From the NCBI GenBank assembly GCA_963818475.1, contig CAWFSF010000006.1, positions 832,001 to 896,000 of the forward strand: DNA of 64,000 bases, read 5' to 3'. The position numbers and the translations under genes were made by a program. A model generated the notes under the pieces. The model was not told the origin of the DNA and did no database searches. It was given only the letters and a program-made list of their open reading frames with translations. The DNA comes from Nitrospirota bacterium (lineage in GTDB: Bacteria > Nitrospirota > UBA9217). Shown here one piece after another: positions 20,724 to 51,067 of the stretch. Numbering within the stretch: the stretch's first letter is position 1; every line of letters begins with the position of its first letter.

Positions 20724-20771
20724 CACCTGTCAATTCTGACAGGTGACAGGTGACACCTTCTCCTATATAAT
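20724..20771 (+). promoter_or_regulatory. lux-box-like site 1 plus sigma70 promoter
   Basis: ACCTGTCAATTCTGACAGGT (20725-20744), GTGACA, 17 bp, TATAAT (20766-20771). Confidence 0.8.
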
Positions 20772-21048
20772 TCACGTGCATTGCATCAGCGACATTCTTC
20801 TCTTGGCGCAGTCGATCGTCCGGCTGTGAAAAATATGAATTCGCATTTGCACCGCGACGCTCTTTGACATTCAGCCTAGCTGTCCAACCTGCGAGATTCT
20901 GTTTGCCCTATGCGGCAAATATGGTAAGATACTGCCGTCTGCTTCGTTGACCGATCAATTGCAGATATTGGCTGGTTTGTGCGTCGCCGGCATTCCCTCA
21001 GTGTGGACAAAGCGACCGGGGTAATAATTATCTTGTGGGAGAACTATC

Positions 21049-22923
21049 GTGACGAAAATCGTCAGCAGTTTCACTATTTTTCTTGCCCTGGCCTTCTCCA
21101 TAACCTTCCCCCCCATTACCCTGGCGCAGCCTGATGAAGACAAAAAGTTCCTTCTCATGTATTTTAAGGAAGAGGAGCTCGTCGTGGAGTCGCCGACGCG
21201 CGGCAAAAAACCCCTCACCCAGGTTGCGGAGAACATTACCGTCGTTACCGCGGATGACATCAAACTCATGAACGCCCACACGGTCGCGGACGTGCTGAAT
21301 GGCGTGACCGGTGTGCAGGTGTTCATGACCGGCGGGCCGGGCAGTTCTGCACTGGCATCCATCCAAGGCTCGGATAACAGGCATGTTGCCATATTCATGG
21401 ATGGAATTCCTATGAACAACCTTAGCGACAATGTCACGGAGATCGGTGCTCTACCGGTCCAGAATATAGAAAAGATAGAGATCATCAAGGGACCGGCGTC
21501 TTCTGCCTGGGGCTCCTCCCTCGGCGGTGTAGTGAATATTATTACGAAGTCGGGGAGTGATGATGGATCCCGCAGCACGGTCTCTGCGAGCTACGGCGGA
21601 AAAAGCATGGCTGATATTAGAATGGAAACCCTTGGCAAAGAGGAACGATTCGGTTACTACGTCACCGCAGGCAGGCTTCAAACCGACGGTTTCAGGTCTC
21701 ATAATGATTTTTCCGGGAACAATGTTTACACAAAACTGACGTATGGCTTATCGGATAAAACGACCATCGGTTTTACTGTTGGGTATGACAACCTTTCGAG
21801 GGGTATTGCAGAATATCCTGACCCTGCTTACGATCTGTTTATTAATAATAAAATAGAGACACTGAAATCGTCTTTGATGGTGAAATCTTTGTTGAGTGAC
21901 GACGTAGAAGCTCAGCTCTCATTTTGGAAGTTGAAACAGAATAATGACATTTATTATTATAAGTTGAGTTCCGGAGTAGAGCTTTCAAAATACTACTATA
22001 AAGATAGCGGTTACGGCTCGAGTGCGAAACTCTCCTGGAAACACGATTTACATAATATCGTTCTGGGTGTGGACTTAGATTCTAAAAAACTTGAGTCTAA
22101 TACTATAGCTGACAATGATGGTTTAAAAAAATGGGCTTATTATATCAACGATACTGTTGCGATCGATCGCTTGTCACTTACGCCTGGCATCCGTTATGAT
22201 AAAACAAGCACGAACGGCGATTTCACCAGCCCGAGCCTTGGCGTTACTTATAAAATAACCGACTCATCTTTGCTCCGGGCATATGTTGCGCGGGGCTTCA
22301 GCATTCCGCCGCTTGGTTATACTTATGGAGATAACGATTTTTATATATCAAATCCAGACTTAAAAATGGAAAGAGTTTGGTCCTATGAGCTAGGAGCTGA
22401 ATCTACAGCGTTGCAATATGTCTGGATGAAGCTGTCCCTATTTCGGCACGATATCAGCGGCGGCATAAGACCAGAACCCGTATCAACGACTTCATCTACA
22501 CGGGTCAATGATGGAAGAGAGAGAAGGCAGGGAATGGAAATAGAGATGAAGTCACTGCCTCTCTACCATACTTTAATGGTTGCTGCAGTAACATTTATAA
22601 ACGCGAAAGATCTGGATACGGGTGAAACTATCGTAAACGTTCCTCAGCGAACATATGATATAGGCCTCCAGTTTGAGAATAATTCATTCAAGGCGCTGCT
22701 CAAGGGACATTATATTTATTGGAACGCTGATCCTACGTATAACGGGAAATACGATTCGATAATCGTGGATCTTCATGTTGCGAAGAATCTTTATGCGCAG
22801 CAAGATCAAGCGCTCGAAGCTTATTTTGATATCCATAATATATTCAACGGATCTCAATATCTTGTGGATGTATATACAAACCCGGCACGGTGGTTTGAAG
22901 CCGGCGTACGCTATACGTTCTAA
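21049..22923 (+). CDS. TonB-dependent receptor
   Basis: Signal peptide, plug motifs (IEKIEIIKGPASSAWGSSLGGVVNIITK), NPDLKME, C-terminal GVRYTF. Confidence 0.93.
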   Translation: MTKIVSSFTIFLALAFSITFPPITLAQPDEDKKFLLMYFKEEELVVESPTRGKKPLTQVAENITVVTADDIKLMNAHTVADVLNGVTGVQVFMTGGPGSSALASIQGSDNRHVAIFMDGIPMNNLSDNVTEIGALPVQNIEKIEIIKGPASSAWGSSLGGVVNIITKSGSDDGSRSTVSASYGGKSMADIRMETLGKEERFGYYVTAGRLQTDGFRSHNDFSGNNVYTKLTYGLSDKTTIGFTVGYDNLSRGIAEYPDPAYDLFINNKIETLKSSLMVKSLLSDDVEAQLSFWKLKQNNDIYYYKLSSGVELSKYYYKDSGYGSSAKLSWKHDLHNIVLGVDLDSKKLESNTIADNDGLKKWAYYINDTVAIDRLSLTPGIRYDKTSTNGDFTSPSLGVTYKITDSSLLRAYVARGFSIPPLGYTYGDNDFYISNPDLKMERVWSYELGAESTALQYVWMKLSLFRHDISGGIRPEPVSTTSSTRVNDGRERRQGMEIEMKSLPLYHTLMVAAVTFINAKDLDTGETIVNVPQRTYDIGLQFENNSFKALLKGHYIYWNADPTYNGKYDSIIVDLHVAKNLYAQQDQALEAYFDIHNIFNGSQYLVDVYTNPARWFEAGVRYTF

Positions 22924-22975
22924 TAACTTGAGCACTATTCGCTTTAAATTAAAAAAGGGGGGGAGGTGAGTGGGG

Positions 22976-23071
22976 ATGAAAAATCGTATTATCGTTTTAA
23001 AAAAAGGAGTTGATAAAAAAGGCGTTGTTTCCGGCGGCTGTTGTGCCATGGCTTTTATTCCGATCCGTTAG
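22976..23071 (+). CDS. Geopeptide-like RiPP precursor, 31 aa (MKNRIIVLKKGVDKKGVVSGGCCAMAFIPIR)
   Basis: Hand-translated; below the ORF-track size cutoff. GGAGGTGA RBS; basic IIVLKKGV leader and CC pair, directly upstream of a radical SAM gene. Confidence 0.85.
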   Translation: MKNRIIVLKKGVDKKGVVSGGCCAMAFIPIR

Positions 23072-23086
23072 TTAACGTACGTTTTA

Positions 23087-23120
23087 GAGAGGGAGGGCTG
23101 CTGGCTCTCCCTCGCATTTT
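23087..23120 (+). terminator. Stem-loop between precursor and maturase
   Basis: GAGGGAGGGC-TGCTG-GCTCTCCCTC followed by ATTTT. Confidence 0.55.
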
Positions 23121-23168
23121 ATTCTTATAAAAGCGACAGATTTTGATCTACCTCATGATGAAAAGACC

Positions 23169-24455
23169 ATGCCATTATCAAAATATACTAAAATATACCC
23201 CTCCCCAGATGGACCTGATTCCGTAATTCTTTATTCTACGAAAAATGCATCGGCACTGCTCGTCCCTTCCGGATCGATTGAAGACATCCAGAAAAACAGC
23301 TTGTCCGACGAGGAAAAAGAAACCCTCACGGATCACGGTTGCCTGGTAAAGGATGCCTCGGAAGAAAGACGTGAGATGCTCACCTTTATCCGGGAAGTGA
23401 ATTCTCTCGATAAAACGCTGAACTATATTGTTGTCTTGAACCTGGACTGCAATCTCGCATGCACATACTGTTTCGAGGGCGAAAGAAAGGGCAAGCTCTA
23501 CCTGTCCGATGAAACAGCCGACCAGTTCGTAGATTTCGTGAAGCGCAGCAGTGTCGGAAAAGAAGAGATCAATATCACCTTTTACGGCGGCGAGCCGCTC
23601 TTAAGCATGGAGCGCATTGCAGGGATCTCTGAAAAACTTCGTTTGTTCTCGGAACAGAAGGGACTTGCTTACGGCTTCTCGCTCGTTACCAACGGGACCC
23701 TGCTCACACCCAGGAATGTAAAGCGCTTAACGCCTCTCGGCTTGAAAAGCGCGAAAGTAACGCTCGATGGGCCGGAATATGTCCATGACATGTTCAGGCC
23801 ATTCAAATCCGGCGAAGGGTCCTTCAATATCATCATGCGGAATATCAAAGACGTCTGCGACATGATACGCATCCAGATCGGGGGTAATTATACGCAGGAA
23901 CATTTTCAGAAGTTTCCCCGGCTTCTTGACGTTCTCGCGGAAAAAGGCCTAACTCCCGACAAGATATATATGGTCAAATTCGACCCCGTGGTCAATGAAA
24001 GCGCAGAGTTTGCGCCGCGTGATTTTCATGACGGGTGCGCGTCGATCAATGAACCCTGGATCAGCGAAGCGAGCCTGTTCCTGCGGGAAGAGATATTGAA
24101 GCGGGGATACAAAACGCCGAAGATCATGCCGTCTCCCTGCGCCATTGAGCGGGAAAGCAGCCTGGTGGTCAACTACGACGGTGCACTGTACAAATGCCCG
24201 GGGCTGATCGGCAGGGCTGACTGCTGCGTGGGCGATCTCAAGAGCGGCTTGATCGACTACGGCAGCTCTCATGATCTCGACGCCTGGAAAAACGAGGAAT
24301 GCCTTGCCTGCGAATATCTCCCGCTCTGTTTCGGCGGATGCAAGTACATGAAGCTGCTGCGCGACGGCACCCTGCGCGGCATCAATTGTCAAAAAGAGTA
24401 TCTTGACCGGACCCTCGCCGGACTGGTGGCACAGGATATTAAATACGATCTATGA
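23169..24455 (+). CDS. Radical SAM/SPASM peptide maturase (geopeptide maturase-like)
   Basis: CNLACTYC, YGGEP, TNGTLL, TLDG; SPASM cysteines C...YKCPG...CLACEYLPLCFGGC...C. Confidence 0.92.
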   Translation: MPLSKYTKIYPSPDGPDSVILYSTKNASALLVPSGSIEDIQKNSLSDEEKETLTDHGCLVKDASEERREMLTFIREVNSLDKTLNYIVVLNLDCNLACTYCFEGERKGKLYLSDETADQFVDFVKRSSVGKEEINITFYGGEPLLSMERIAGISEKLRLFSEQKGLAYGFSLVTNGTLLTPRNVKRLTPLGLKSAKVTLDGPEYVHDMFRPFKSGEGSFNIIMRNIKDVCDMIRIQIGGNYTQEHFQKFPRLLDVLAEKGLTPDKIYMVKFDPVVNESAEFAPRDFHDGCASINEPWISEASLFLREEILKRGYKTPKIMPSPCAIERESSLVVNYDGALYKCPGLIGRADCCVGDLKSGLIDYGSSHDLDAWKNEECLACEYLPLCFGGCKYMKLLRDGTLRGINCQKEYLDRTLAGLVAQDIKYDL

Positions 24456-24572
24456 CCCGTTTCAATATCTGTGAAATCTGCGTAATCTGCGGATAATACA
24501 TTGACTTGAGCAGTTACTAAAAAAATCTTTTCACTAATCAGCAGGCTTTCGGATAGATAACACAGGCATTCC

Positions 24573-25485
24573 TTGATCAAATTGAATTCATACTTCGCCC
24601 GCAACCTTCTCCTCATCTTTTCCCTGTTCGCAGCGGTTCCGGTGCTCGGACCCGCGTCCGTGAACGCATGCGATGTTGTCGTAGTGAAAAGCGCCGACCT
24701 GAAACCCTACCGCGACGCGCTTCGAGGGTTTCGGGACGCGAGTTCCTGCACCGTGAGCGAAGTGGAATTGAACGACGATCGCGATCTTGAAAGAATACGT
24801 CAGAAAACGGCCCGATGTCGTGCTGGCGATCGGTACAACGGCCTTTAAGAAGCTCAGGCTGTTGAACGATGTTCCCGTTGTGTACGTTATGGCTGTCCTC
24901 TCCGAGGCGGACCGCGCACTTCCTCCGAATATTTCCGGCGTGAGCATGGAGATACCGCCTGCGGCCTATTTTGCCGCCATGAAACAGGTCTTTCCCTCGG
25001 CAAAACAGGTCGGTCTTTTGTACGATCCGCGCAACAGCGAGACCTTTGTCGAAGAAGCGTCACGCGACGCACGCGCCGCCGGTCTCGAGCTGTCGGACAG
25101 GAAGCTCCCCGATCCCGCAGGCCTGGCTGCTGCTCTCGGCAGCATGCGGGACACTATCGACATCCTGTGGATCTTGCCAGATCCGACCGTGGTAACGCCT
25201 GAAACGATCGATTACCTGCTGCGTTTTTCCATTCAAAACAATATTCCGCTCTTCGCTTTTTCAAAAAAATACGTCGAAATGGGCGCGATCGCTTCGCTCG
25301 ATGTTGACCCCTACGACATGGGCGCGCAGGCCGCGGACATAGCAAAGGGGATCGCCGCGGGGGGCAAAGGGTCGGTACGCGTATACGCGCGGAAAACCCG
25401 GCTTTCGATCAACGGGAAGGCCGCGAACAAAATGGGCGTCAAGATCGACAGCGAAACGGCGCGCAGGGTGGACCATGCCGATTAG
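24573..25485 (+). CDS. Periplasmic ABC-type substrate-binding-like sensor partner (one apparent frameshift)
   Basis: Signal peptide and PYRDALRGF, then after a shift near 24805 PDVVLAIG, GLLYDP, LWILPDPTV and DPYDMGAQAA. Confidence 0.8.
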
Positions 25486-26927
25486 GAGCTTTCGGAACAG
25501 GATCCGGGAACAATTCGGACTGAAGGTGTTCACCGCCTTCTTCGTCGTCATTGTTGTGCTCCTGACAACCTATACCGGCATCGGCGCTTTCCGTGAATGG
25601 CACAAGGCGAAGGACAAATTGAAGGAACAGGGGGAGATGCTTGCAGACCTGCTCTCACAGAATGTCCTCGTCGGGCTGTTCGCGGAGGACGAAACACTGC
25701 TCGAGGCGGCTGCGGCCGGAATGCTCGGTCTGAAAGACGTCACGTCGATCACGATCTATAACAGCGAGCTGAAGTTGCTCTATGCCGGTAAGCGGTCTTC
25801 GTCCGGGCAAAGCGCAACGCCCCTCCCTGGCGGACCGGTCCCCGGTCTTGGGGGTGTTTCCGGTCCCGACGTCGTCGAAACAGCGGACTCCTTTCAGTTC
25901 ACAAAACCCGTGTCGATCAGGTCGCGGTCCCGAGGCTGTCGAGTCCCTGTATTTCGACGTGCAGGGCACGGGGCGCAGCGGCCGGGTGATAGGATACGCG
26001 CAAGTCGTCCTGAGCAAGGACTCATTTCGCAAGGACATCGCATCGCTCGTGACGCGGAGAGCCGTAATGATGCTCCTGTTCATCGCTGCCGGCTGGGTCA
26101 TCATTTCTTTCGCAGTGAAGCAGGTCACGCGGCCGCTCCGGAACCTGACCGGGAAGGTGCGGTCGCTTGAATTGGGACTGCCCATCGAACCGGCTGTTGT
26201 GGAAACGGAGGATGAGATCGGGAAGCTCGCAGCGGCCTTCAACGCGATGGTTGAGGCGCGCGTCAGAGCGGAAAAATCCATGCGGGAGAGCGAGGAACGG
26301 GAACGGCACCTGATAGCGACCGACCTTCATGATTTCGTGGGACAGAACCTCGTGGCGTCGCAATACCAGCTCGGAGCATTGCGGAAGCTCATCTCCTCCC
26401 CTGAAGCGGCCGCACGCCTGGACGAGGCGCGCGAGCTGATCGCGCAGACCATCCAGTACACGCGGTCGCTCACCATCGAGCTCAGGTCTCCCGTGCTGGA
26501 GGAACTCGGCTTGCAATCGGCCATCGAATCGCTGGCCGAAAGTTATGAAACCACCCACGGGGTCCCTGTGCGGGTGGAGAATGACGGCTTGCCGATGGAG
26601 ATCAGCGACGAGACGGGCTATCTGCTCTTCCGGAGCGTGCGCGAGCTCCTGATGAACATCGTAAAGCACGCGAAGGCGACCGAAGCGAGGATCTCGGTGA
26701 CGAGGACGGGGGACAATGTCCGCATCGCGGTCAGGGACAACGGCATCGGGTTCATTGCAACGGCGGCGCCACAGCCCGGCCATAGCTTTGGTTTATTCAC
26801 CATCCGCGAGAGGCTACGAGGCCTTGGCGGGCATTGCGACGTCGAATCCGCGCCCGGCGCGGGGACAACGGTGGTCCTTACGGCGCCGCTCGTGAGATCC
26901 GGGGAACAGGGAAAGAGGACGCCATGA
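25475..26927 (+). CDS. HAMP HisKA_3 (NarX/UhpB-type) sensor kinase (one apparent frameshift)
   Basis: TM and periplasmic domain, shift near 25929, TM-HAMP (DEIGKLAAAFN), ERHLIATDLHDFVGQ, ELLMNIVKHA, DNGIG, FGLFTIRER. Confidence 0.88.
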
Positions 26928-27568
26928 TAAAGATACTTCTCGTTGACGACCACAAGATCGTGCGCGCCGGGCTCAGGGCGGTGATAGCCGGGCACCCGGA
27001 CATGACCGTTGTTGCCGAAGCGGGCGACGGCAGGACCGCCGTGGAACTCGCCGCCGAAGTGTCGCCGAACGTTATTATCATGGACATCTCCATGCCCGGT
27101 TTGAACGGAACGGAAGCGACCCGCAGGATACTGGAGGCGAACCCGGACGCCAGGATCATAGCGCTGTCGATGCATCTTGAACGGCGCATCGTGCTCCAGA
27201 TGCTGGGCGCCGGCGCAAAAGGATATTTATTGAAAGACGGCGCCGATGACGAGGTGATCGACGCCATTCTCGCTGTTACGCAGAATGCGACCTACCTGAG
27301 TCCGAGGATCAGCAACATGGTCTTGAGGGACTACGTCGAACGGGTCTCGAAAAATGAACTGTCCTCGATCTCCCTTCTGTCGTCGCGGGAGCGGGAAGTT
27401 CTGCAGCTTCTGGCCGAGGGGAAAAAGACAAAGGATATCGCCACGCTCCTTACGGTAAGCATAAAAACCGCAGAATTCTACCGCCAGCAGATCATGGAAA
27501 AACTGGACGTTCATACCATCGCCGAGCTTACGAAGCTGGCTATCCGCGAAGGCCTGACCTCGCTGTAA
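26924..27568 (+). CDS. NarL/FixJ-family response regulator
   Basis: ILLVDDH, MDISMP, GYLLK, LSSREREVLQLLAEG, IMEKL. Confidence 0.95.
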   Translation: MIKILLVDDHKIVRAGLRAVIAGHPDMTVVAEAGDGRTAVELAAEVSPNVIIMDISMPGLNGTEATRRILEANPDARIIALSMHLERRIVLQMLGAGAKGYLLKDGADDEVIDAILAVTQNATYLSPRISNMVLRDYVERVSKNELSSISLLSSREREVLQLLAEGKKTKDIATLLTVSIKTAEFYRQQIMEKLDVHTIAELTKLAIREGLTSL

Positions 27569-27682: not shown

Positions 27683-27730
27683 CACCTGTCAGTTCTGACA
27701 GGTGACAGCGAACAAAAAATCACTTACAAT
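27683..27730 (+). promoter_or_regulatory. lux-box-like site 2 plus sigma70 promoter
   Basis: ACCTGTCAGTTCTGACAGGT (27684-27703), GTGACA, 17 bp, TACAAT (27725-27730). Confidence 0.8.
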
Positions 27731-27856: not shown

Positions 27857-28864
27857 ATGGACATCGAATTTCACTATTACATCACCGCTCTTATAGCACT
27901 TCGCGCCGGATTTACTAAGGAAGAGGCCTATATACTTGCCTATGCTTCGCAGCATGTTGACGATAATACCGACGTCTTTAAGATCAATCAGGGTACCGCC
28001 GAGGCATACAGCAATTACATAAGTCAAACGTCAAACATACTAAAAGCGGAAAAGGAGCTAATGCAAATCTATCCCGTTTTCCACTTTATGCCGGGGAACA
28101 GGGACGAGATTGAATGTGAAGGGGCCATGCGATGTGACGGAAAACTTCATGTTCTCAATACGATACCGGACAATAGCAATGCCTGCGCCGTCCTGCAGGC
28201 GGCTTTCGACGACGGCAATCTCTACCGCATAGGGATAGCAACGCATATGTACGCAGATACGTTCGCGCATCAGAACTTTGTCGGCTACTACGAATCGTTC
28301 AATGCCATGAAAGGCGTTCTCGGTAAAGCTATTCCCGATGTGGGGCATGCGGACGCCCAACACAACCCCGATCTGCCGGGGCTCATCTGGGATGATAAAC
28401 GCCTTATCAACAAGAACAAGGATGTCTGCAACAGGGACCGTTTCCTCAAAGCGGCAGAACGCATCTTTGAGCAGTACCGGCGACATAAAGATCCCCACTG
28501 CTCGCCTGAAGTCATTACAGCGGACAAGACCTCGCTTATGGCCACTATTACTTATGCGATCGGTGAAACCGGCGATCATGCGGTCAACGATCAGGAGCGA
28601 AAGAATCGCATAGCCCGGTATAGAAAAGCCATTGGTGAAGATTTTAAGGACTATGACGAAAAGGAGTGGCTTGGCGAGGCAATTGAACGAAAAGGCCTCC
28701 TTGCCCCGATCAATCCGTGGCCCTCGTATGCATGGAAAGCCGATCACACGGACAGCCACTGGTTCAAGTTCCAGGAAGCGGTCAAGAACCATCAATGGTT
28801 CGCCAAGGACAATGTCCTGAGCCCCATCACCAAAAATCTTCAGCTTGATCGATTTTATAATTGA
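27857..28864 (+). CDS. Conserved hypothetical protein (DUF6765-like; His/Asp motifs reminiscent of zinc phospholipase C/S1-P1 fold)
   Basis: MDIEFHYY, ASQHVDD, FHFMPG, GIATHMYADTFAHQNF, GHADA; AGGAGG RBS. Confidence 0.6.
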   Translation: MDIEFHYYITALIALRAGFTKEEAYILAYASQHVDDNTDVFKINQGTAEAYSNYISQTSNILKAEKELMQIYPVFHFMPGNRDEIECEGAMRCDGKLHVLNTIPDNSNACAVLQAAFDDGNLYRIGIATHMYADTFAHQNFVGYYESFNAMKGVLGKAIPDVGHADAQHNPDLPGLIWDDKRLINKNKDVCNRDRFLKAAERIFEQYRRHKDPHCSPEVITADKTSLMATITYAIGETGDHAVNDQERKNRIARYRKAIGEDFKDYDEKEWLGEAIERKGLLAPINPWPSYAWKADHTDSHWFKFQEAVKNHQWFAKDNVLSPITKNLQLDRFYN

Positions 28865-29460
28865 GGACTACCTTACGGATGGAGTGTTCCCTTTCCATGA
28901 TACATGAATACGAGATCAACGGTGTGACCCTGCGGACCGGGGATATCATCTGCACGCATGACGGGGGCGCCCCGATTCTGGAGGGCCAGCTCTGGCATTT
29001 TGTCGGGAACCTGATCCCCGGCGATGTCGACCATGTCGCTCTTTATCTTGGACCGGGCGGTCGCTGCATAGAGGCAGGGCCGAAAGGGGTCAACATATTC
29101 GAAATGAAGAGCAGGACCTGGGATTCCGTGAATATGCGGGACCAGCGCGGCCCGGTTGTGGATACGTTCTACGGCGTCGCCTGCCCGGTAGAGGGCAGAG
29201 GTCTTGCGGAAGAAAAAAAAGCCGAGATCCGGGAGAGCGTTGCCCGGTACTGCATTGCGCAGGCAGGAAAGCCGTACAATTTGAATTTTATGAATTCGGA
29301 AACAGAAGATACGTTTTATTGCAGTCAATTAGCGTGTCTGGCGTATCTGAAAAGCGGCATCATTTTGAACACGGACCTGGGGGTGCCTCTGGTTCCCGGG
29401 ACGCACAGCATCATCTTTCCGCAGGAGATATGGAGCGGGTGTGTAAATAAAAAGGCATGA
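28861..29460 (+). CDS. Permuted papain-like NlpC/P60 (YiiX/YebB-like) enzyme
   Basis: GDII...DHVALYLG...GKPYN...FYCSQL, with His preceding Cys; start uncertain. Confidence 0.8.
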   Translation: MRTTLRMECSLSMIHEYEINGVTLRTGDIICTHDGGAPILEGQLWHFVGNLIPGDVDHVALYLGPGGRCIEAGPKGVNIFEMKSRTWDSVNMRDQRGPVVDTFYGVACPVEGRGLAEEKKAEIRESVARYCIAQAGKPYNLNFMNSETEDTFYCSQLACLAYLKSGIILNTDLGVPLVPGTHSIIFPQEIWSGCVNKKA

Positions 29461-35285: not shown

Positions 35286-35333
35286 CACCTGTCATTTCTG
35301 ACAGGTGACAGCGAACAAAAAATCGTTTACAAT
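35286..35333 (+). promoter_or_regulatory. lux-box-like site 3 plus sigma70 promoter
   Basis: ACCTGTCATTTCTGACAGGT (35287-35306), GTGACA, 17 bp, TACAAT (35328-35333). Confidence 0.8.
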
Positions 35334-35523
35334 CCTGAAACAATTTGTCGAGGGCTGTTTAGTTAAGATCATAACGTAAGGTTTCGACAAGATAAAAAGG
35401 AAACACTTGCTTGTCAGGTCAAGTAAAAATAGACGTGGTAGGTATATGGGGACATTAGAGGGATGGAATGCATCAAACAACAAATGCATCACGTCCCGCG
35501 TCGGTCCCGTATGTGAGGGAACA

Positions 35524-36615: not shown

Positions 36616-38292
36616 TATAAGCTAGCAAAAAGAGAAGCCTCCTGCTAAGAATAAGTTTATTCCGAAACTAAATTCTCGCACAGGAGGCCTCTCATGAATG
36701 ATTCAGATGGTATCAGGCTGCAGGAATTTTGTCAATTCAAGAAAGAGATTCGCGGTTCGACGCAGTATTTGGTCGTAGGACTTGATGTCGCCAAGGAACG
36801 GCATAATGCCTTCTTTGGCACCGCGACCGGTAGGACACTGCACAAAGGGATGTTCTTTGATAATACGTACGATGGTTTCCAAAAGCTCCTGATCCAAACG
36901 GACGCGCTCAAGGTGCAGCATGGCCTGCGCAAAGTAGTTTTCGGACTGGAACCCACGGCCAATTATCATAAACCCCTGGGAGAATATCTCATCAAGGGCG
37001 GACACTTGGTTGTTCTGGTATCTGCTGCAGCCACGTCAAAGAACCGTGAGCTTATGGATGGCCGATGGGATAAGCACGACACCAAAGATGCCGCGAATGT
37101 CGCCGACCTAATCTCCCTGGGAAAATGCCTGTACTACGACTGCCCGGGGGAGGATCTGCGGTCCTTGCGGGGGCTGTTGTCCTTAAAGAAACGGCTCAAA
37201 AAAGAGGAGCACGGTCTCCGGGTCCGCATCCGCAATCAGCTTCTGGCCCAGTACTTCCCGGAAATGGACCAGCACTTCGGTTCGGTAGCGAGTCTGAACG
37301 TGGTCCAGCGATGCATGGATCCCTCGCTTATCTCCCTTATGGAATACGACGAGTTCTGCCGGACGGTATCGCCCGGCAAGGTGAATATGGCGCAGCAGCG
37401 GCGGCTTACGCAGATATGGCGGGCTGCCAAGCAGTCCATTGGCTGCATCGTCGGAGAAGCGGTGTCCGTGGAAGCACAGATCATGGTGATGGGACTTCAC
37501 CAAGTCCGGGAGACGATCAAGACCGTTGAGGACAAAATCGAGGACATCTGCCTGAAGTTTCCGGAGTACTCGTTCCTTCTCATGATTCCCGGTTTCGGTC
37601 CGGATGTGTCTTCCAAGGTCCTGGCTGCCATCGGCGATCCCGAACGCTTTACGAACGGTAAGCAGGTCTTGAAGATGGCCGGATTCGATCTGTGCGCGAG
37701 CCGAAGCGGAAAAACGTCAAATAGCGCCACACCGGTCATCTCCAAGCATGGGAAATCCGATCTCCGCTACGCTCTGTATCAGGCGGCGATCATCAGTTCG
37801 CTCAACTATAAAGAGTTCATCGTCTACCACACGAATAAGATAAAGGGACGGGAGCGGGAAAAAGGGATTGGCACCAAGATGCGGGTGAAACTGGCAGCAA
37901 AACTGTTGATCATCGCTTGGACGCTCATGAAGAAAAAAGAAACATTCGACCCGAAATACCTCAGCCAGGGGGGTAGTAAGGCATAGGCCGGACTGAAAAT
38001 TGAATTTCGACGTAGAGAGCCCGGGACACAACGTTGAGGCGAATGACCTCGTGAGGGACAATACAGGGCCTCTCATAGAACTTGAGAATCTGGATAAGGG
38101 ATGCTTGGCGGCAACGGCACGCCGGATATTTATAACGCTTAGAGAGCAAGTTCGCTTTACGTGAGAAAGTCGTCGAAGAAAATGCTGATGTCCAAACAGG
38201 ACGCATAGGTGAAGTGCGTCTTCAAGAAAAACCGTCAGTTATCGTATTGGAATTTCAGCGAAAGCAAGTTGCACTTGACAAGGGGGCTATAG
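36616..38292 (+). mobile_element. IS110-family insertion sequence (ends approximate)
   Basis: Transposase; GCCTCCTG...CAGGAGGC stem over its RBS; about 300 bp non-coding 3' region ending TTGACA...CTATAGG. Confidence 0.65.
36694..37986 (+). CDS. IS110-family transposase/recombinase
   Basis: DEDD motifs VGLDVAK, GLEPTANY and KHDTKDA; IPGFG, RSGK, ISKHG..LRYALY. Confidence 0.95.
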   Translation: MNDSDGIRLQEFCQFKKEIRGSTQYLVVGLDVAKERHNAFFGTATGRTLHKGMFFDNTYDGFQKLLIQTDALKVQHGLRKVVFGLEPTANYHKPLGEYLIKGGHLVVLVSAAATSKNRELMDGRWDKHDTKDAANVADLISLGKCLYYDCPGEDLRSLRGLLSLKKRLKKEEHGLRVRIRNQLLAQYFPEMDQHFGSVASLNVVQRCMDPSLISLMEYDEFCRTVSPGKVNMAQQRRLTQIWRAAKQSIGCIVGEAVSVEAQIMVMGLHQVRETIKTVEDKIEDICLKFPEYSFLLMIPGFGPDVSSKVLAAIGDPERFTNGKQVLKMAGFDLCASRSGKTSNSATPVISKHGKSDLRYALYQAAIISSLNYKEFIVYHTNKIKGREREKGIGTKMRVKLAAKLLIIAWTLMKKKETFDPKYLSQGGSKA

Positions 38293-38299
38293 GATGTCC

Positions 38300-39254
38300 C
38301 CGAGTCGGTTCTGACTACTTAGTATTTGACGAAAAAAATATCGAACATGCGCGAAAACTAATTATTCCACGTGAAAGCAATATGGAGCTTGCCAAAAATA
38401 GGCTAAACAATTTTGCAAATCATACCGGCCTAAAAACGATTTCGGCAAATAATAATGTAAATGTTACTGAACTATTGAACAGATATTTTAGTTGTAGCCC
38501 GCCGTTCGCCGAATCTGGGCAAAAGAAAAATGAGTTTCCCGATGCTATCGCATTAATGACACTAGAAGACTGGGCAAAGCAAAAGAACGTAAAAATTATA
38601 GCTGTTTCTTTAGATAAAGATTGGCACGATTTCGGAAAAGCATCTGAATATATAGACGTTACATCTGATTTAGCTGAAGCAATATCCATCTTCCAGCCTC
38701 ACAATACTGCTTTTGCATTTTGTATCAAACTAGCGAGCGATTTGATGACAACAGCGGGCGAAAAAATACGAGACCCCTTAGAATCGTATTTACGAAATTA
38801 TGTGGAAAATATGGATGTTTATGCCGAAGGAAGTTCTGCGTACTATTTTGAATCTGATTATGTGGAAACAAAATATAATACCTTTGAATTTTTAGTTAAC
38901 CATGAAGACAAGGCACAACTACGGCCGGTACAAATACAGGAAAATACGATTGTTGTAGAGTCTGAACTTACAATAAAGGCAGAAGCATCATCTGATTTTA
39001 CTTTTTCAGTTCATGATTCAATCGATAATGATGATATGAAAATTGGCGATGCAGAGGCTACACGCGACTTCGAATTCGACTCAAAGGTACTTATTACCTT
39101 AACGGGCGATTTCGATAAAGGACTCGATTTTGTAAAGGTAATAGCATTCGAGGTTTTATCTTCGCCAAAGTATGTAGATTTTGGAGAAATCGGCCCTGAG
39201 TGGGGTTACCATGAATTAGGTTATAATGAACTAGGTTATAATGAGTCGCAGTAA
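38300..39254 (+). pseudogene. PIN-domain (DUF4935-like) protein lacking its N-terminus
   Basis: RYFSCSPPF...KKNEFPDAIAL...VSLDKDW motif present; the N-terminal xDT motif is absent and the ORF-track start (38214) lies in IS sequence; AT-rich. Confidence 0.7.
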
Positions 39255-39343
39255 GTGCTGCATATAGGTCGATTGTCATCAAATGAGATTTTACCGCCGT
39301 GCTCTCCGCAAGGTGTCGCAGCACGTCAAAAAAGGAGGATAGC

Positions 39344-40360
39344 TTGCACATATTCAATAAACCGAGGGTCTTCTTATCTCATTCAGCAAAGGACAAGACT
39401 TTTATCGAAAGGCTATCGACAGACCTCCATAAATGTCAAATTGAACCGTGGTTGGATACTGAGGAAATCAGGGATGGTAAGTCCTGGCTAAAAGTTATAT
39501 TTGAAGACGGTATCCCGACCTGTGACAGTATCATGGTCTATTTTACCGAGAATTCTATTAATTCGAAAATGGTTGGGAAAGAAATTGACTCATCGCTTAT
39601 CACTCAATTAAGTGATAGTGGTATCGGGATTATTCCGTATGTCCAAAAAGCCGAACTGAGAAAGAAATTAAGGGTTGATTTGCAAACGCTGCATTGCCGT
39701 GAGTGGAATGATGCAAACTACCAAGATCTATTGCCATCTGTAGTTGCAGAGATATGGCATAGTTATATGGAAAGAACTGTAAGTACGGCTGTAGCTCAGG
39801 AGAGAAATAGGCGATTGGAATTGGAACTTGAAATTATTAAGCAACAAGAAAGATACGAATCGTCACCATTTACACCTTCAGAAGAAGCAGATTATAAATA
39901 TATCTATGATTCCCTAGGCCAAACGATTGACATTTGCTTCGGTTTATATGTCAAACACAACTCTTCATCTCTTGAAAAGCGTAAAGACGTCTTCCAATTT
40001 ACCTATCTCGACCTAGTGTTACTCAGTTTACAAAATGGTCAGGTGTATTGTGATTGGGACGAAATTAGGTACAGCTTAATAGGAATATTAAAAGAGCACG
40101 GATATCCGGAAGCTACTGAAGAAGACAGCAGGTATATTAATTCTAAAGACAACATGGGAGCGACATTCGTAGTTAACATAAGAACAATTGGACTAACGAA
40201 GAGAGTGCAGGCGGATGATGGTTTTGGATACCTTAAGCCGCAAGATGAATATTCTGAAAAAGCATTCAGATTTAATTATTGGCTAGGTTTTAATAACAAA
40301 TTGAAGAAAGAACTCACCTTTAAATATACTAAAGGTGAAGAATTGAAAATGAAGTTCTAA
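39344..40360 (+). CDS. TIR-domain protein
   Basis: PRVFLSHSAKDK, PWLD..EI..G, SINSKMVGKE; GGAGG RBS before TTG 39344; AT-rich. Confidence 0.85.
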   Translation: MHIFNKPRVFLSHSAKDKTFIERLSTDLHKCQIEPWLDTEEIRDGKSWLKVIFEDGIPTCDSIMVYFTENSINSKMVGKEIDSSLITQLSDSGIGIIPYVQKAELRKKLRVDLQTLHCREWNDANYQDLLPSVVAEIWHSYMERTVSTAVAQERNRRLELELEIIKQQERYESSPFTPSEEADYKYIYDSLGQTIDICFGLYVKHNSSSLEKRKDVFQFTYLDLVLLSLQNGQVYCDWDEIRYSLIGILKEHGYPEATEEDSRYINSKDNMGATFVVNIRTIGLTKRVQADDGFGYLKPQDEYSEKAFRFNYWLGFNNKLKKELTFKYTKGEELKMKF

Positions 40361-42063: not shown

Positions 42064-42111
42064 CACCTGTCGGTTTTGACAGGTGACACACGTTGAAAAT
42101 ATTCATATAAT
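42064..42111 (+). promoter_or_regulatory. lux-box-like site 4 plus sigma70 promoter
   Basis: ACCTGTCGGTTTTGACAGGT (42065-42084), GTGACA, 17 bp, TATAAT (42106-42111). Confidence 0.8.
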
Positions 42112-42402: not shown

Positions 42403-42588
42403 ATGGGATTATGGTCAAAAATAAAAAATGCCGTTAAGAAGGCCGTTACGGTTGTTGTCAATATCGTTAAAGGCATTGTACGTGACCTGTTGTGTACTAC
42501 AAGGGGACGTAGTTGCACCCGTTGCGTAGCGGACAATGATGCAGTGACCGCAGTCGACTTTATTTGGGATGGAGACATCGCACTCTGA
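42403..42588 (+). CDS. Small ORF with cationic amphipathic N-terminus
   Basis: MGLWSKIKNAVKKAVTVVVNIVKGIVRDLL; GGGAG RBS; the C-terminal part overlaps the duplicated LysE leader. Confidence 0.45.
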   Translation: MGLWSKIKNAVKKAVTVVVNIVKGIVRDLLCTTRGRSCTRCVADNDAVTAVDFIWDGDIAL

Positions 42589-42618: not shown

Positions 42619-43248
42619 GTGTCCCTTGAATTCTGGCTCCTCTACGCAGTCACCGTCTTCCTCGCCTCGATCAGCCCCGGTCCCAGCATGCTGCTTGCCC
42701 TGACGCACGGCATGAAGTACGGTACGCGGCGGACCATGACGACGGCGGCGGGCAACGTCGTCGCTTCGCTGCTCCAGGCGGCGGTTTCCATCGCAGGTCT
42801 GGGCGCAGTCCTGACCCTGTCAGAGGGCGTGTTCTCGGTCGTCCGGTGGCTGGGGGCGGGGTATCTCATCTACCTTGGCATCGTCACGTGGCAGTCTTCA
42901 TCGCTCTTGCAGGCAGGAGAGGAGGGCGGCGCGCCCAGTCCCGCGCTGACGCTTCGCAGCATGTTCCTCCGGTCGTTCTTCGTTGCAGCGGGGAACCCGA
43001 AGGCGATCATCTTCTTTACGGCGCTCTTCCCCCAGATCGTCGGCAGCGGCGTGCGGCGGCTCTCCGAAGTCTCGATCCTGCTTGCGACGCTGGCGCTCAT
43101 CGCCTTCTTGTGCTTCATGCTCTATGCAACGGCTGGTCAGCGCATCCTTGCGCTCTTCTCCCGGCAGGCCGCCGGCAGACACCTGAACCGGATCGCCGGC
43201 GGCGCTTTTATCGGGGCCGGTATCGGGCTCGCCGTAAGCAGGCGATGA
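42619..43248 (+). CDS. LysE/RhtB family translocator
   Basis: SPGP, RWLGAGYLIYLG, NPKAIIFFTALFPQ, NRIAGG. Confidence 0.92.
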   Translation: MSLEFWLLYAVTVFLASISPGPSMLLALTHGMKYGTRRTMTTAAGNVVASLLQAAVSIAGLGAVLTLSEGVFSVVRWLGAGYLIYLGIVTWQSSSLLQAGEEGGAPSPALTLRSMFLRSFFVAAGNPKAIIFFTALFPQIVGSGVRRLSEVSILLATLALIAFLCFMLYATAGQRILALFSRQAAGRHLNRIAGGAFIGAGIGLAVSRR

Positions 43249-43471
43249 GAGACATGAATATCTTCCGGATTGCCCTTCTTATTTCAGTTCACTGAAAAAA
43301 CCCTCTTGTCTCAGTAGACAGCAATTCTTGCACCCTCCCCTTAGTTCCCTCCCATCGAAGGAAGAGGAGCGTTAATCTTGCTGCGGGGTAGCTCATCATG
43401 AGCCTGTTCCGTTGCGATCCTTGTTCTGGGTCCCGGCCGCATTGCCGGTAATGGCCTTGTTGCGTGCGATC

Positions 43472-43536
43472 GCTACCAGGGAAAAATTCCGGAAAATTAG
43501 GGATTCCCCGGTTGTCATCCGGTCGGAAAGCTGTTA
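43472..43536 (+). promoter_or_regulatory. Second conserved upstream motif, copy 1
   Basis: GCTACCRGGGAAAAA-N5-RAAAATTAGGGATTCCCCGGTTG-N12-AAAGCTGTTA, colinear with 54286-54350. Confidence 0.65.
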
Positions 43537-43623
43537 CAGATATGCATAGAGGGTGAATATAAAGAAAAGACCTTCTTATCGTATCCGGTCATACCTGAGA
43601 CTGGAATAATCGAGGATATCTCC

Positions 43624-44112: not shown

Positions 44113-44160
44113 CACCTGTCAGTTTTGACAGGTGACAAACGTTAAAAATATTCATATAAT
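44113..44160 (+). promoter_or_regulatory. lux-box-like site 5 plus sigma70 promoter
   Basis: ACCTGTCAGTTTTGACAGGT (44114-44133), GTGACA, 17 bp, TATAAT (44155-44160). Confidence 0.8.
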
Positions 44161-44203
44161 TATTTTTAGGTAGTTGCCAAACATCCCACCAGGAGGCAGA
44201 AGA

Positions 44204-46069
44204 ATGCAAAACTTCAGACAGATCCTGAAAAAAGACAAGGCGCTCCGGGAAGAGGTCGAGCATCTGGTCGAAAGCGGGAGAAACCTGCCCATAGCCAGGC
44301 GGCAAGGCGTCAATTCTTCCACCATCAAAAAAGCTATGATCGGGCCGCACAACGAGCTGCCAAGGGCAGAGGCAATGGTCCAGCGGCATCTACGGCCAGC
44401 CCTGCTGATCCGGAACAACAAGATCGAAACCCCGGAGTCTCTGGAAATCCGCAAGCGTCTGCTTCCGTACATCGGGAAAGTGGAGAGCAGGGTTCCTTCC
44501 GTGGGCAGGATCGAGTTCGAGAAGATCGGCCGGCCCTTCGGCGGTACCGGTTGGATGATCAGCGAGGATGTCATCGTCACGAACAGGCACGTTGCCGCGC
44601 TCATGGCGACGAAAAAGGGAAACACCATAACCTTCATTAAGAACCAGATGGGCGAGACGGTCCAGGCATGCATTGATTTCAAGGAGGAGTTTCTCGGAAA
44701 TAATCTCGCTACTCCCGAATTCGAGATCCCCATCGAGAAAGTGCTGTTCATGACGGACAACATCAATACCCAGCCCGATATCGCCTTTGTCAAGATACGG
44801 AAGCATCCCCGGTTGCCCCAGCCCATCCCCATCAGCGATACTCCTCTTACAAAAGATCAGTTCGTCTCCGTGATAGGATATCCCGCGTACGATCCCGACG
44901 GGATCATCAGCCCCGGTGCAGCAACGGATGTGTTTCACGACATCTACGGTGTGAAGCGGTGCTCGCCGGGCGAGATCATGGAGTACGACAAGAACGGCTG
45001 GTATTTCTTCCATGACTGCACGACCCTGGGCGGGAACTCCGGCTCCGTGGTGCTGGACAATTCGACCGGGTATGCGGTCGGTCTCCATTTCATGGGAGAA
45101 GTGAAAAAGGAAAATTACGCCGTGAAAAGCACGGAGATCATCAAGTACCTCCGCAAGATAAAAACGTCCGTGTACATCAGATCGGTCCCCGGTGAAGTGA
45201 GGGCCAAGGAACGGGCCGGTGGTCCGGAACCGGAAGCGGCTCCGGAAAGTTACGACGACCGCAAGGGTTACCAGGTAGATTTCCTGGATCCCAGGTTTCC
45301 CGTGCCCCTCCCCGTCGTCTCCCGGAACAAACAGCAGGTGCTCACTTTCGGCAGCAACCGCAAAGGAGCGTCGGAGCTGAAATACCATCACTTCAGCGTT
45401 GTGATGAACAAGGAACGTCGCATGTGCTTCTTCAGCATCTGCAACATCGACGGGAAGCAGAGCAAGCGGGGTGTAGCGAGGACAGGCTGGAAATGGGACC
45501 CCCGGCTCCTGAAAAAGTACCAGATCAAGGACGAATGTTACGGCAATCCTCCCCACTTTGCCCGCGGTCACATGACCCGCAAGGAGGACCCCATCTGGGG
45601 AAGCCTGCAAACGGCGCGTGCTGCCTGCTCGGACACCTTTCACGTCACCAACGCAACTCCCCAGATGCAACCGTTCAATGCCCCGGTCTGGCTCGCGCTC
45701 GAAGATTATGCGCTCGAGAACGCCCGCCAGGATGATATGAAAATCACGGTGATCACGGGCCCCATCTTTCATGATGAGGATCCGGTCAGGTTCGATGTGC
45801 AGGTCCCTGTCGAGTTTTTCAAGATCATCGCGTTCATCCATGACGAGACCGGCAAATTATGCGCCACAGCCTACACCGTCTCGCAGGCGGATTATCTGAC
45901 CAACGAAGAGTTCGTATACGGGGAATTCAAGACGTACCAGGTCTCGATCAAGTCGATCGAAAACAAAACAGGGATCGATTTCGGCAAGCTTGCAACGGCA
46001 GATCCGAAAAAAGGGGAAGAGGCGCTTTCCACGGCGCTTATGAACGTCGAGGATATTGTTTTCAATTAA
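44204..46069 (+). CDS. Trypsin-like serine protease fused to DNA/RNA non-specific endonuclease
   Basis: TNRHVA, PDIA and GGNSGS triad; FARGH, TNATPQ, WLALE, TGPIF and VPVEFFKII nuclease motifs; AGGAGG RBS. Confidence 0.92.
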   Translation: MQNFRQILKKDKALREEVEHLVESGRNLPIARRQGVNSSTIKKAMIGPHNELPRAEAMVQRHLRPALLIRNNKIETPESLEIRKRLLPYIGKVESRVPSVGRIEFEKIGRPFGGTGWMISEDVIVTNRHVAALMATKKGNTITFIKNQMGETVQACIDFKEEFLGNNLATPEFEIPIEKVLFMTDNINTQPDIAFVKIRKHPRLPQPIPISDTPLTKDQFVSVIGYPAYDPDGIISPGAATDVFHDIYGVKRCSPGEIMEYDKNGWYFFHDCTTLGGNSGSVVLDNSTGYAVGLHFMGEVKKENYAVKSTEIIKYLRKIKTSVYIRSVPGEVRAKERAGGPEPEAAPESYDDRKGYQVDFLDPRFPVPLPVVSRNKQQVLTFGSNRKGASELKYHHFSVVMNKERRMCFFSICNIDGKQSKRGVARTGWKWDPRLLKKYQIKDECYGNPPHFARGHMTRKEDPIWGSLQTARAACSDTFHVTNATPQMQPFNAPVWLALEDYALENARQDDMKITVITGPIFHDEDPVRFDVQVPVEFFKIIAFIHDETGKLCATAYTVSQADYLTNEEFVYGEFKTYQVSIKSIENKTGIDFGKLATADPKKGEEALSTALMNVEDIVFN

Positions 46070-46150
46070 AATGAGCCTGCCTGTTGTAACGGCACTTTGG
46101 CCAGAAACTTTGATCCGCTGTTGTAACGAGGACATTCAACACCTAAAGTG

Positions 46151-48774: not shown

Positions 48775-48829
48775 CATATAGGGTCACTTCTTTATCATTG
48801 TCATCATTGTCAAGATCAAAGAAGTGACC
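48775..48829. repeat. REP-like palindrome interrupted by the intron
   Basis: CATATAGGGTCACTTCTTT...AAAGAAGTGACC, completed by CCAATAGT at 50743. Confidence 0.85.
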
Positions 48830-50742
48830 GTTCGCAGTAACAACTGATTATCTCGCGGGTTCAAGTCCCGCCCAAGGAGTTGTCCGTACACCTTGGTAGC
48901 ACGAGGGAGCGGCGTCTGAGCAATCAGAGGTCGTGAGTTCCCAAACGGCAAAGCTACAGGCCGCAGCGAAAGCGAACCTACACGTAGCCTCGTAACTTAT
49001 TCGGAGATGCCGACCTTGTGGTCAAATGGGGAAGGCCGATGCGCGCTGATTCAGACAACGGAATCGATCTGTGCGATCTCCCGGGGTAGCAGGGGCGGCA
49101 TGCAGCGGAAGATAAGCAGTCCAGTGCTGGAGACCCCATACAGTGATGTTAGAGGAACATCAACCGGTGCGTATAAGGAAACGAAAACGCACTGGGCTGT
49201 ATCGGGAGTCGGAGGGGTCCATAGTATCGTTTGAAGGTATGGGACAACATAACCCTGCCCGAGAAAAGGGACCCTGCTTTGTTCACGCAACCGAAGGAGA
49301 GAGGATGAGGGGATTGCAGAGATGCTAACAACCCCAGATACAATCAGGACACTCCAGAGGAAGCTCTACCGTAAGGCCAAGCAAGAACCGGCCTACCGCT
49401 TTTACGCGCTCTACGACAAGATACACCGGGCCGACATCCTCAGTCACGCCTACCATCTTGTCAGGGCCAACAAAGGAAGCGCCGGCATCGACGGCGTCAC
49501 CTTCGAGGCCATAGAGACCGGAGAAGGGGTAATCGCCTTTTTGGCGGAGCTGCAAGAAGCACTGAAGAGCAAGACCTATGCACCAAACCCTGTAAAGCGC
49601 GTCATGATCCCCAAAGGAGACGGCACAGAGCGTCCCTTGGGAATCCCGACCATTAGGGACAGGGTGGCCCAGATGGCCGTAAAACTGGTCATCGAACCGA
49701 TATTTGAAGCGGATTTTATAGACACCTCATACGGATTCAGACCCAAGAAGTCGGCCCATGATGCAATCGAAGACATATCGTATGCCCTTAACTGCGGTTA
49801 TACGGAAGTCATCGACGCCGATGTGTCCAGGTACTTCGACACCATTCCCCATGCCAAACTCATGGCCGTGGTCGCCGAGCGCATCGTTGACAGTGCGATT
49901 CTGCACATTATCCAGATGTGGCTCAAGGCCCCGGTTATGGAAGTGGACAAGGACGGAACGAAGCGCAACATCGGCGGCGGCAAGGCAAACACCAAAGGAA
50001 CACCGCAGGGCGGTGTCATCTCGCCGCTCCTGGCCAATCTCTATCTGCACCTGTTAGATAGGATATGGCATAAGAAGAAGCTTCAGTATAGGCTCGAAGC
50101 GCGTCTTGTCCGGTATGCCGACGATTTTGTCGTGCTGTGCAGAAAGGGAACTGAGCAGCCGATGGCGGTTGTGCGCCGGGTGCTCGAACGACTGGGACTT
50201 GTACTCAATGAGAACAAGACCCGCATGGTGAACGCCAAGCAAGAAGGCTTCAACTTCCTTGGATTTGAACTTCGTATGGGGAAAAGTCGGAGAACGGGCA
50301 ACCTTTACCCCCTTATACAACCGTCACGAAAAGCCCTGAAGAAGATCAAAGACAGCGTTACCGCTCTTACACACAGGCGGATGACGCCGAAGCCGCTTAC
50401 TATGATAATCGAAGATATCAATACCGCCCTCCGGGGCTGGGTCGGGTACTTTCATTACCGCAATAGCAGCAAGGCGTTCAATCGTCTCAAGTTTCATGTG
50501 GAAGCGCGAGTGCGCACGCATCTGCGAAAGCGGCATAAGATCAAAAGCAGGGCAGCGGGGTTTACCAGGTTCACCAACAGGTCTTTGTACGAGAAGTATG
50601 GGCTCTATAAAGTGCCGACGACAGCGGGCTGGCTGAAGGCGCATGCCTTGCGGTGAAGAACATCGGAAAGCCGTGTGCGGGAAAACTGCATGCACGGTTT
50701 GATGAGGGAGGGCTGGTCAATACGACCAGCTCTCTACTCTAC
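48830..50742 (+). mobile_element. Group II intron
   Basis: 5' GTTCG; RT ORF; domain V AGCCGTGTGCGGGAAAACTGCATGCACGGTT; domain VI ending CTACTCTAC. Removing it restores a palindrome matching 46151-46210. Confidence 0.92.
49322..50656 (+). CDS. ltrA: Group II intron reverse transcriptase/maturase, no endonuclease domain
   Basis: RPLGIPTIRDR, SYGFRP, GTPQGGVISPLLAN, RYADD, FLG and LRGWVGYF motifs. Confidence 0.96.
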   Translation: MLTTPDTIRTLQRKLYRKAKQEPAYRFYALYDKIHRADILSHAYHLVRANKGSAGIDGVTFEAIETGEGVIAFLAELQEALKSKTYAPNPVKRVMIPKGDGTERPLGIPTIRDRVAQMAVKLVIEPIFEADFIDTSYGFRPKKSAHDAIEDISYALNCGYTEVIDADVSRYFDTIPHAKLMAVVAERIVDSAILHIIQMWLKAPVMEVDKDGTKRNIGGGKANTKGTPQGGVISPLLANLYLHLLDRIWHKKKLQYRLEARLVRYADDFVVLCRKGTEQPMAVVRRVLERLGLVLNENKTRMVNAKQEGFNFLGFELRMGKSRRTGNLYPLIQPSRKALKKIKDSVTALTHRRMTPKPLTMIIEDINTALRGWVGYFHYRNSSKAFNRLKFHVEARVRTHLRKRHKIKSRAAGFTRFTNRSLYEKYGLYKVPTTAGWLKAHALR

Positions 50743-51019
50743 CCAATAGTTCCCAAAGTTGGCCCGATGCACAAACTGGTGTTAGTGGGGCGTAGATCAG
50801 GAGAAGGGCAGCTGGAACATTATTTCCCCAGAGTGAACGCCTCATCCAGCTTGACCGAAGGTATCAAGAAATCCACGGATGATTTGCTTTCCAGCTATGC
50901 GATGGGTATTTGGTCAGCCGTACGGGGTCATAACTGTCGGCATGTCCTCCCATTATTCGTCAAACATCGCGTTTCCTCCTTTACCGATCGATGTATCTCC
51001 TTAAAACCCGAAAAAACAC

Positions 51020-51067
51020 CACCTGTCAGTTCTGACAGGTGACAAGTGCTAAAAATATTCATATAAT
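51020..51067 (+). promoter_or_regulatory. lux-box-like site 6 plus sigma70 promoter
   Basis: ACCTGTCAGTTCTGACAGGT (51021-51040), GTGACA, 17 bp, TATAAT (51062-51067). Confidence 0.8.

Follow-up and report, generated by a model that had tools for sequence, protein, structure and literature searches.

Lux boxes, class II promoters, the sensing of acyl-homoserine lactones (AHLs) by Nitrospira and LuxR solos are all known, and the class II reference position of a LuxR-family box is one centred at -42.5. NspR1 of Nitrospira activates transcription in both directions from its box, according to reporter activation and to electrophoretic mobility shift assays of binding with RNA polymerase (PMC8553950). 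Vibrio fischeri LuxR without its N-terminal domain is constitutively active (PMC2845093). Here we describe a 64-kb stretch of a Nitrospirota genome (64,000 nucleotides, hereafter the window) in which six copies of a 20-bp lux-box-like palindrome each overlap a predicted promoter and are followed by the gene of a shortened, pocket-less LuxR. The sequence comparisons make it slightly better than an even bet, at about 55%, that an AHL-independent class II activator, with this LuxR as the candidate, binds the box near -43 and drives secreted and defence-like genes, in a regulon that expanded through the copying of a promoter module of about 70 bp.

A first-pass annotation of the window had listed the palindrome ACCTGTC-N6-GACAGGT at 20725, 27684, 35287, 42065, 44114 and 51021, and all six copies are exact and stand between C and G. 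Its promoter geometry was recovered as well: each copy overlaps a GTGACA hexamer by 2 bp, and exactly 17 bp further on the + strand lies TATAAT (4/6) or TACAAT (2/6). A search of the window that tolerates up to two mismatches gives these six copies, every one exact, where chance would give 0.09; none of 100 shuffled windows gave six (maximum one). The motif is a 20-bp inverted repeat with the CT-N12-AG core by which a lux box is recognised; this core and the LuxR residue numbering used below are those given in PMC4338825. If the -10 hexamer is taken as -12 to -7, the box centre falls by arithmetic at -43.5 from the predicted transcription start. The boxes and the putative regulator are as follows.

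20725..20771, + strand: lux box 1 (20725-20744), -35 GTGACA (20743-20748) and -10 TATAAT (20766-20771), an exact motif in this geometry
27684..27730, + strand: lux box 2, -35 and -10 TACAAT, upstream of DUF6765 (27857-28864) and C92 peptidase (28861-29460) genes
35287..35333, + strand: lux box 3, -35 and -10 TACAAT, upstream of an open reading frame (ORF; 35407-35976) that is regulator-like by eye, with no family match
42065..42111, + strand: lux box 4, -35 and -10 TATAAT, upstream of a 61-aa ORF (42403-42588) and a LysE gene (42619-43248)
44114..44160, + strand: lux box 5, -35 and -10 TATAAT, upstream of a fusion of trypsin-like protease and non-specific endonuclease (44174-46069)
51021..51067, + strand: lux box 6, -35 and -10 TATAAT, start of a box - receiver - luxR module found also in metagenomic locus L125
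54445..54951, + strand: LuxR of quorum-sensing type, 168 aa long and deleted for the AHL pocket, the best candidate binder of the boxes

The motif is not confined to the window. The assembly under study (G000; 4.66 Mb, 7 contigs, 91% complete, 6% contamination) contains 26 exact copies. Among 401 Nitrospirota genomes (G000 and 400 others, the phylum of relatives being taken from record titles), 19 carry an exact box, and none except G000 has more than three. Our working set comprises 29 sites in G000, namely the 26 exact copies, two with one mismatch and the same promoter, and one that lacks the left arm (C5:462104); a one-mismatch site (C3:194589) and all two-mismatch sites were left out because they do not have the -35 extension. 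The pattern GACAGGTGACR-17 bp-TAnnnT is present in 27/29 sites, with the box centre again at about -43.5, and the promoter elements are near consensus, the -35 being GTGACA in 26 sites and the -10 TACAAT or TATAAT in 20. Every GTGACA-17-TAYAAT promoter of the genome (17/17) has the box. When GTGACR sites are sorted by spacer length, the left arm of the palindrome is found at 27 of 52 with 17 bp, at none of 26 with 16 bp and at one of 33 with 18 bp.

Random scatter of the motif over the genome, as expected of a repeat or a transposon end, had been named beforehand as the pattern that would speak against regulatory sites, and the genome-wide scan gave a different picture. The copies are intergenic and oriented with the promoter: none of the 29 lies within a stop-free frame longer than 142 aa, and 24 are followed within 500 bp by a same-strand ORF of at least 75 aa, although a few of these ORFs are doubtful. 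Compared pairwise, the sites are 0.90 identical in the box, 0.48 in the 17-bp spacer and 0.40 just past the -10, with values of 0.26 both upstream of the box and farther downstream. From this profile it follows that many sites probably descend from a copied module of about 70 bp in which the box and the -10 were kept. Among the genes found after boxes are the geopeptide operon and those for an RHS protein, a giant Ig-repeat protein, transglutaminase-like and NHL-repeat proteins, a phospholipase A1 and the protease-nuclease; others are defence-like, namely an HNH gene, a kinase, a SIR2-like gene and an exonuclease with Cas3 (PADLOC matches at domain level).

An alternative is an inert or recombinational repeat that no protein now reads: a mobile strong promoter in which a lux box has been left over, or else a site of recombination whose 6-bp core is asymmetric. 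The spacer and leader are more alike between sites than the background, homology tracts between sites often begin at the box or stop about 60-70 bp past its start, 19 of the 28 sites with a neighbour on their own contig have one within 25 kb, and at least five of the 29 are without a clear gene within 500 bp. We nevertheless find such a repeat highly improbable, since the box has stayed 0.90 identical while the spacer next to it drifted to 0.48, the asymmetric core occurs in the validated NspR1 and lasB boxes too, and across the phylum the motif and luxR genes go together. For related reasons a transposon end, miniature inverted-repeat transposable element or scattered repeat was rejected (27/29 sites are oriented with the -10 and 24/29 lie near a same-strand ORF, in addition to the contrast between box and spacer), as was a site of site-specific recombination, given that validated lux boxes share the asymmetric core. 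A near-exact box at C6:2012089 lies between a WYL-like gene and the exonuclease and Cas3 gene; a WYL-regulator site was discarded as an explanation of the motif, which stands behind a WYL-like gene (by eye) in this one case but follows luxR across genomes.

Exact copies of the box sit at the luxI promoter in loci L005, L006, L014 and L160 (luxI of L160 identified by eye), in all of which luxI overlaps a convergent luxR, and an exact box lies beside luxR in L158 and L012. Of the 18 genomes besides G000 that have a box, 9 encode a full-length LuxR, as against 48 of 382 genomes that have none, with a Fisher p of 2e-4 that is overstated because kin genomes are not independent. The closest solved structure for the box-owning LuxRs is CviR. 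With the validated Nitrospira NspR1 box, as given in PMC8553950, the boxes of the window share 15-16 of 20 positions; for two of them the agreement with lasB op1 reaches 18 of 20 (by eye; lasB sequence from the PMC8553950 supplement). The motif at relatives' luxI promoters and this likeness to validated boxes bear out the first-pass reading of lux boxes in class II geometry, in which activation and the transcription starts are predicted.

No luxI was found in the 91% of the genome that G000 represents, by tblastn, with a relative's protein or by profile (best E 3.2); the Pfam search for luxI ran without a working control. The autoinducer-binding domain PF03472 was not found in G000 in a search whose control was positive in Escherichia coli, and a profile search of the same genome was likewise negative. 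In the six genomes of the genus there was no match to luxI or to a full-length LuxR.

The genome encodes eight proteins with a LuxR-type helix-turn-helix (HTH) domain, and only the one at 54445-54951, 3.4 kb past box 6, clusters with the box-owning LuxRs of L005 and L006. Support for this grouping in the Shimodaira-Hasegawa-like approximate likelihood ratio test (SH-aLRT), the measure used for our LuxR trees, which were quick searches without bootstrap, is 98 for the whole protein and 98 for the C-terminal 97 residues; the latter grouping cannot be an effect of gaps. About 80 residues are deleted from the ligand domain. A homology search returned 15 matches, of which 12 are pocket-less proteins of 166-210 aa and the others one fragment, one full-length LuxR and one protein without HTH. 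All 12 pocket-less homologues have lost the ligand-domain invariants W57, Y61, D70, P71, W85 and G113, and all 12 keep the HTH invariants E178, L182 and G188. In 54445-54951 itself none of the six ligand-domain residues is present. Between G000 and four homologues the nonsynonymous (dN) and synonymous (dS) divergences are 0.04-0.09 and 0.35-0.80 in the HTH, and 0.36-0.87 and 0.49-1.43 in the former pocket region; judged by these values the DNA-binding domain is under purifying selection. A structure model has two N-terminal helices and a long helix before the HTH (predicted template modelling score 0.40), with a low-confidence linker (predicted local distance difference test below 50, residues 42-70). 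The pattern of invariants, the substitution values and the model together suggest that the deletion is natural and the protein maintained. A homodimer prediction scored 0.27 against a mark of 0.42 and speaks neither way.

In two metagenomic contigs this protein and the box occur together. The pocket-less protein is encoded in 5 of 8 metagenomic loci. In L129 an exact box lies 32 bp past the stop of the pocket-less gene and faces a gene for a 3161-aa Ig-repeat protein, and in L125 an exact box lies 880 bp upstream of the pocket-less gene, in the order box, receiver gene, luxR. The window has the order of L125 plus two inserted genes (receiver likeness by eye). The congener G003 gave no match to a pocket-less LuxR, and none of its three promoters of the same family has kept an intact box.

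We propose descent from a convergent luxR-luxI module in which first-hand signalling ended with the loss of luxI and of the AHL pocket. What is left of the protein, namely the N-terminal helices, the last helix of the old ligand domain and the HTH, would bind the box at about -43 as a dimer and activate sigma-70 RNA polymerase without AHL, as the engineered N-terminally deleted LuxR does. Control might be exerted through luxR expression, by way of a conserved leader, or through a partner protein, for which the receiver and the PAS kinase encoded nearby are candidates. The regulon would have grown because the box-plus-promoter module of about 70 bp was copied before accessory genes for secreted or surface proteins, hydrolases and defence-like functions, with selection retaining the box and the -10 of each copy. 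Activation without AHL is favoured because the geometry is common to the intact loci, NspR1 is an activator and N-terminally deleted LuxR is constitutive.

Several observations weigh against this proposal. L125 and L129 come from one metagenome, and a box was not seen around the pocket-less genes of L126 (10 kb on each side), L127 and the 2.5-kb L128. The genome G004, of the same genus (74% complete, 260 contigs), encodes a 210-aa pocket-less LuxR and has no box at up to one mismatch; conversely, G001 (65% complete) and G005 (92%, 190 contigs) have one intact box each and no match to a pocket-less LuxR. These counter-examples all come from incomplete or fragmented assemblies. The near-consensus -35 and -10 might need no activator. 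Finally, because the G000 assembly is incomplete and partly contaminated, an intact luxR or luxI could have escaped it.

If an intact luxR, with or without luxI, did lie in the unassembled part, the boxes would form an ordinary AHL regulon, and the occurrence of full-length LuxR in half of the other box-positive genomes fits that explanation. We judge it quite unlikely, since G000 has only seven contigs, none of the six genus genomes yielded a full-length LuxR or luxI, and the pocket-less gene has been conserved and lies near boxes in other contigs. Another alternative has the same binder with the opposite sign: the pocket-less LuxR would constitutively cover the -35 of strong promoters and repress acquired genes, which would be released by a drop in its level or by a partner that displaces it. 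The -35 and -10 are close to consensus, the genome has only 15 TTGACA-17-TAYAAT sites, LuxR is able to repress from a box that overlaps the -35 (PMC5601948), and half-modules in G003 without the left arm retain the -35 and -10. Repression is unlikely in our estimation, because the same near-consensus geometry already stands beside intact luxR-luxI pairs and -43 is an activating position for LuxR-family proteins. NspR1, moreover, activates from such a box (PMC8553950).

A further candidate reader is encoded in the geopeptide operons, of which G000 has two (window 21049-27568 and C6:244491-251765), each with a TonB receptor, a short Cys-Cys peptide, a radical SAM maturase, a binding protein, a kinase and a regulator. 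Both look like peptide-signalling circuits in their own right. The second ends with a chimera of receiver, NarL HTH and quorum-sensing LuxR HTH (C6:250932-251765), which is found also in L112, L114, L117 and L176. In a two-component takeover the boxes would be read by this chimera or by the NarL-type regulator at 26924-27568, which ends the first operon, and the circuit would answer a modified peptide. Boxes 1 and 2 flank the geopeptide operon; the chimera has a C-terminal half of quorum-sensing type and occurs in G003 and G005, two congeners that bear boxes and gave no match to a pocket-less LuxR; and a near-exact box comes straight after the gene of a receiver-HTH fusion in G227. We consider the takeover very improbable all the same. 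The C-terminal half of the chimera clusters with the luxI-linked LuxRs of G021 and G026, and the luxI box of G021 is a different one; the chimera occurs in G024 and G027, which are without an exact box; and its operon has no box, the nearest lying 29 kb off. On the quorum-sensing HTH profile the HTH of 26924-27568 falls well short, at 52 bits against 107, and the NarL protein, put forward with LuxR in the first-pass annotation for footprinting, is unlikely to be the binder. Two related candidates were rejected, a separate box of G021 type for the chimera (no copies in G000) and an origin of the box in a geopeptide circuit that regulates itself (no box accompanies the second such operon of G000).

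Four other features of the window bear on the proposed activator and its targets.

21049..27568, + strand: unit after box 1, comprising a TonB receptor, a 33-aa peptide ORF (22970-23071), a geopeptide radical SAM maturase, an ABC-type binding protein, a histidine kinase and a NarL-type response regulator
51124..51492, + strand: stand-alone receiver domain; a similar gene lies between box and pocket-less luxR in L125 (by eye)
52889..54121, + strand: PAS histidine kinase immediately 5' of luxR; L126 and L127 have a similar kinase before luxR
54122..54444, + strand: conserved non-coding leader of about 330 bp, likely the luxR promoter, conserved in 6/6 loci aligned

The downstream units had been described largely correctly: the geopeptide operon, the DUF6765 and C92 peptidase genes, the 61-aa ORF with LysE, the trypsin-nuclease and the receiver stand, while the labels XRE and C39-like found no Pfam or NCBIfam match. 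The maturase of the box 1 unit matches TIGR04280 at 585 bits (cut-off 400), and the 33-aa peptide ORF has no NCBIfam match. Frameshifts in the binding protein (24573-25485) and the kinase (25475-26927) may be assembly errors. Box 4 sits in a 941-bp segment with a second copy at C6:279882-280822. A PilZ gene is preceded, at about 43407-43542, by a second copy of part of the luxR leader. In 3 of 4 leaders scanned there is a 9-mer resembling a DnaA box, along with an inverted repeat. The direct repeat ATACCC-N5-ATACCC at 55049-55066 is found also 5' of luxR in L106 and L109 and lies upstream of TTGACA in two full-length luxR promoters, possibly as the site of another regulator. The 3' end of luxR has a short duplicate downstream of the gene (55222-55307). 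The window further contains a group II intron reverse transcriptase (49322-50656), the compared 1.2 kb of which has five more near-identical copies in the genome, four of them at C6:241-274 kb, and an IS110 transposase followed by PIN-domain and TIR-domain genes (36694-40360).

Among the nine box-positive genomes without a full-length LuxR, four have short quorum-sensing-type HTH proteins, the receiver fusion of G227 and HTH-only forms in G213, G355 and G369. In the remaining five, the luxR of G029 is cut by a contig end, G005 has the chimera only, G311 has the NarL type only, and G001 and G263 gave no match. Other short LuxR forms are scattered over the tree. The short forms in box-positive genomes may reflect recurrent loss of the AHL domain with the box kept. 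In family f24 (L165, L166, L168) exact boxes stand before pilin-like genes and the only quorum-sensing-type LuxR match is an HTH-only protein. Tentatively, and with less than even confidence, we picture a dismantled quorum-sensing circuit that was reused, its signal-blind LuxR acting as a master switch while the spreading module of about 70 bp annexed acquired secreted, competition and defence genes. This would be one of several independent escapes of LuxR HTH and lux box from AHL control in Nitrospirota, by internal deletion here, by receiver fusion in G227 and by HTH-only proteins in f24.

Outside the phylum the same motif precedes large surface-protein or autotransporter-like genes (labels by eye) in records of Pseudomonas (L017, L020, L035, L039, L065, L072, L078) and Pandoraea (L028, L037, L042). 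No luxR lies within those 5-kb loci, and their boxes possibly belong to undescribed LuxR-family regulons. In a gammaproteobacterial record (L059) a gene with a C-terminal LuxR-type HTH is immediately followed by an exact box and a lipoprotein-like gene, and viral contigs gave seven matches to the motif.

New here are the count of sites over the whole genome, their origin at luxI promoters, the comparison across the phylum and the linkage to boxes in other contigs, and we found no publication in open-access text that describes a LuxR with a natural internal deletion and an enlarged regulon. If our reading is true, a quorum-sensing regulon appears to grow after signal loss and not to decay, and nature has a counterpart to the engineered constitutive LuxR, with 29 promoters. 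If it works as we propose, the protein and its box would form a compact inducer-free pair of activator and promoter. AHL sensing cannot be read off from the presence of lux boxes in a genome, a caution for metagenomic surveys of quorum sensing.

Measured against known systems, the boxes agree with the las box of lasB op1 at up to 18 of 20 positions and with the V. fischeri lux box at 14-15 of 20. The las and lux regulons are AHL-dependent, with boxes in class II position, and their target boxes are usually more degenerate. The comparison set also included the rpaI box, with its sequence from the PMC8553950 supplement. NspR1/NspI, as described in PMC8553950, belongs to the same phylum, has the similar 20-bp box already compared and, as in L005, L006 and L014, serves from it the synthase gene and a divergent gene; however, NspR1 needs C8-HSL and has two or three confirmed promoters, whereas G000 has 29 near-identical sites and neither a synthase nor an AHL pocket was found in it. 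CviR/CviI and CsuR/CsuI of Chromobacterium share the convergent luxR-luxI arrangement, with an 80-bp overlap as in L005, and a core palindrome that agrees at 8 of 10 specified positions, but in the account of PMC12114271 the receptor is full-length and AHL-dependent and has a cognate synthase. LuxR solos, among them the AHL-independent CarR, likewise have no cognate luxI and bind 20-bp palindromes. They differ in retaining both domains, with point changes in the pocket, and the truncated forms described in PMC4338825 keep the ligand domain and are without the HTH, the reverse of 54445-54951. By the definition of a solo given in that source, our protein has the HTH invariants and the descent from AHL receptors and is without the N-terminal autoinducer-binding domain. 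The nearest functional likeness is to the engineered LuxR delta2-162 (PMC2845093), in which loss of the ligand domain leads to AHL-independent activation from the lux box. That protein is synthetic and its whole N-terminal domain is gone, whereas the natural one described here appears to have kept two helices at its N-terminus, along with the one preceding the HTH, and to be under selection.

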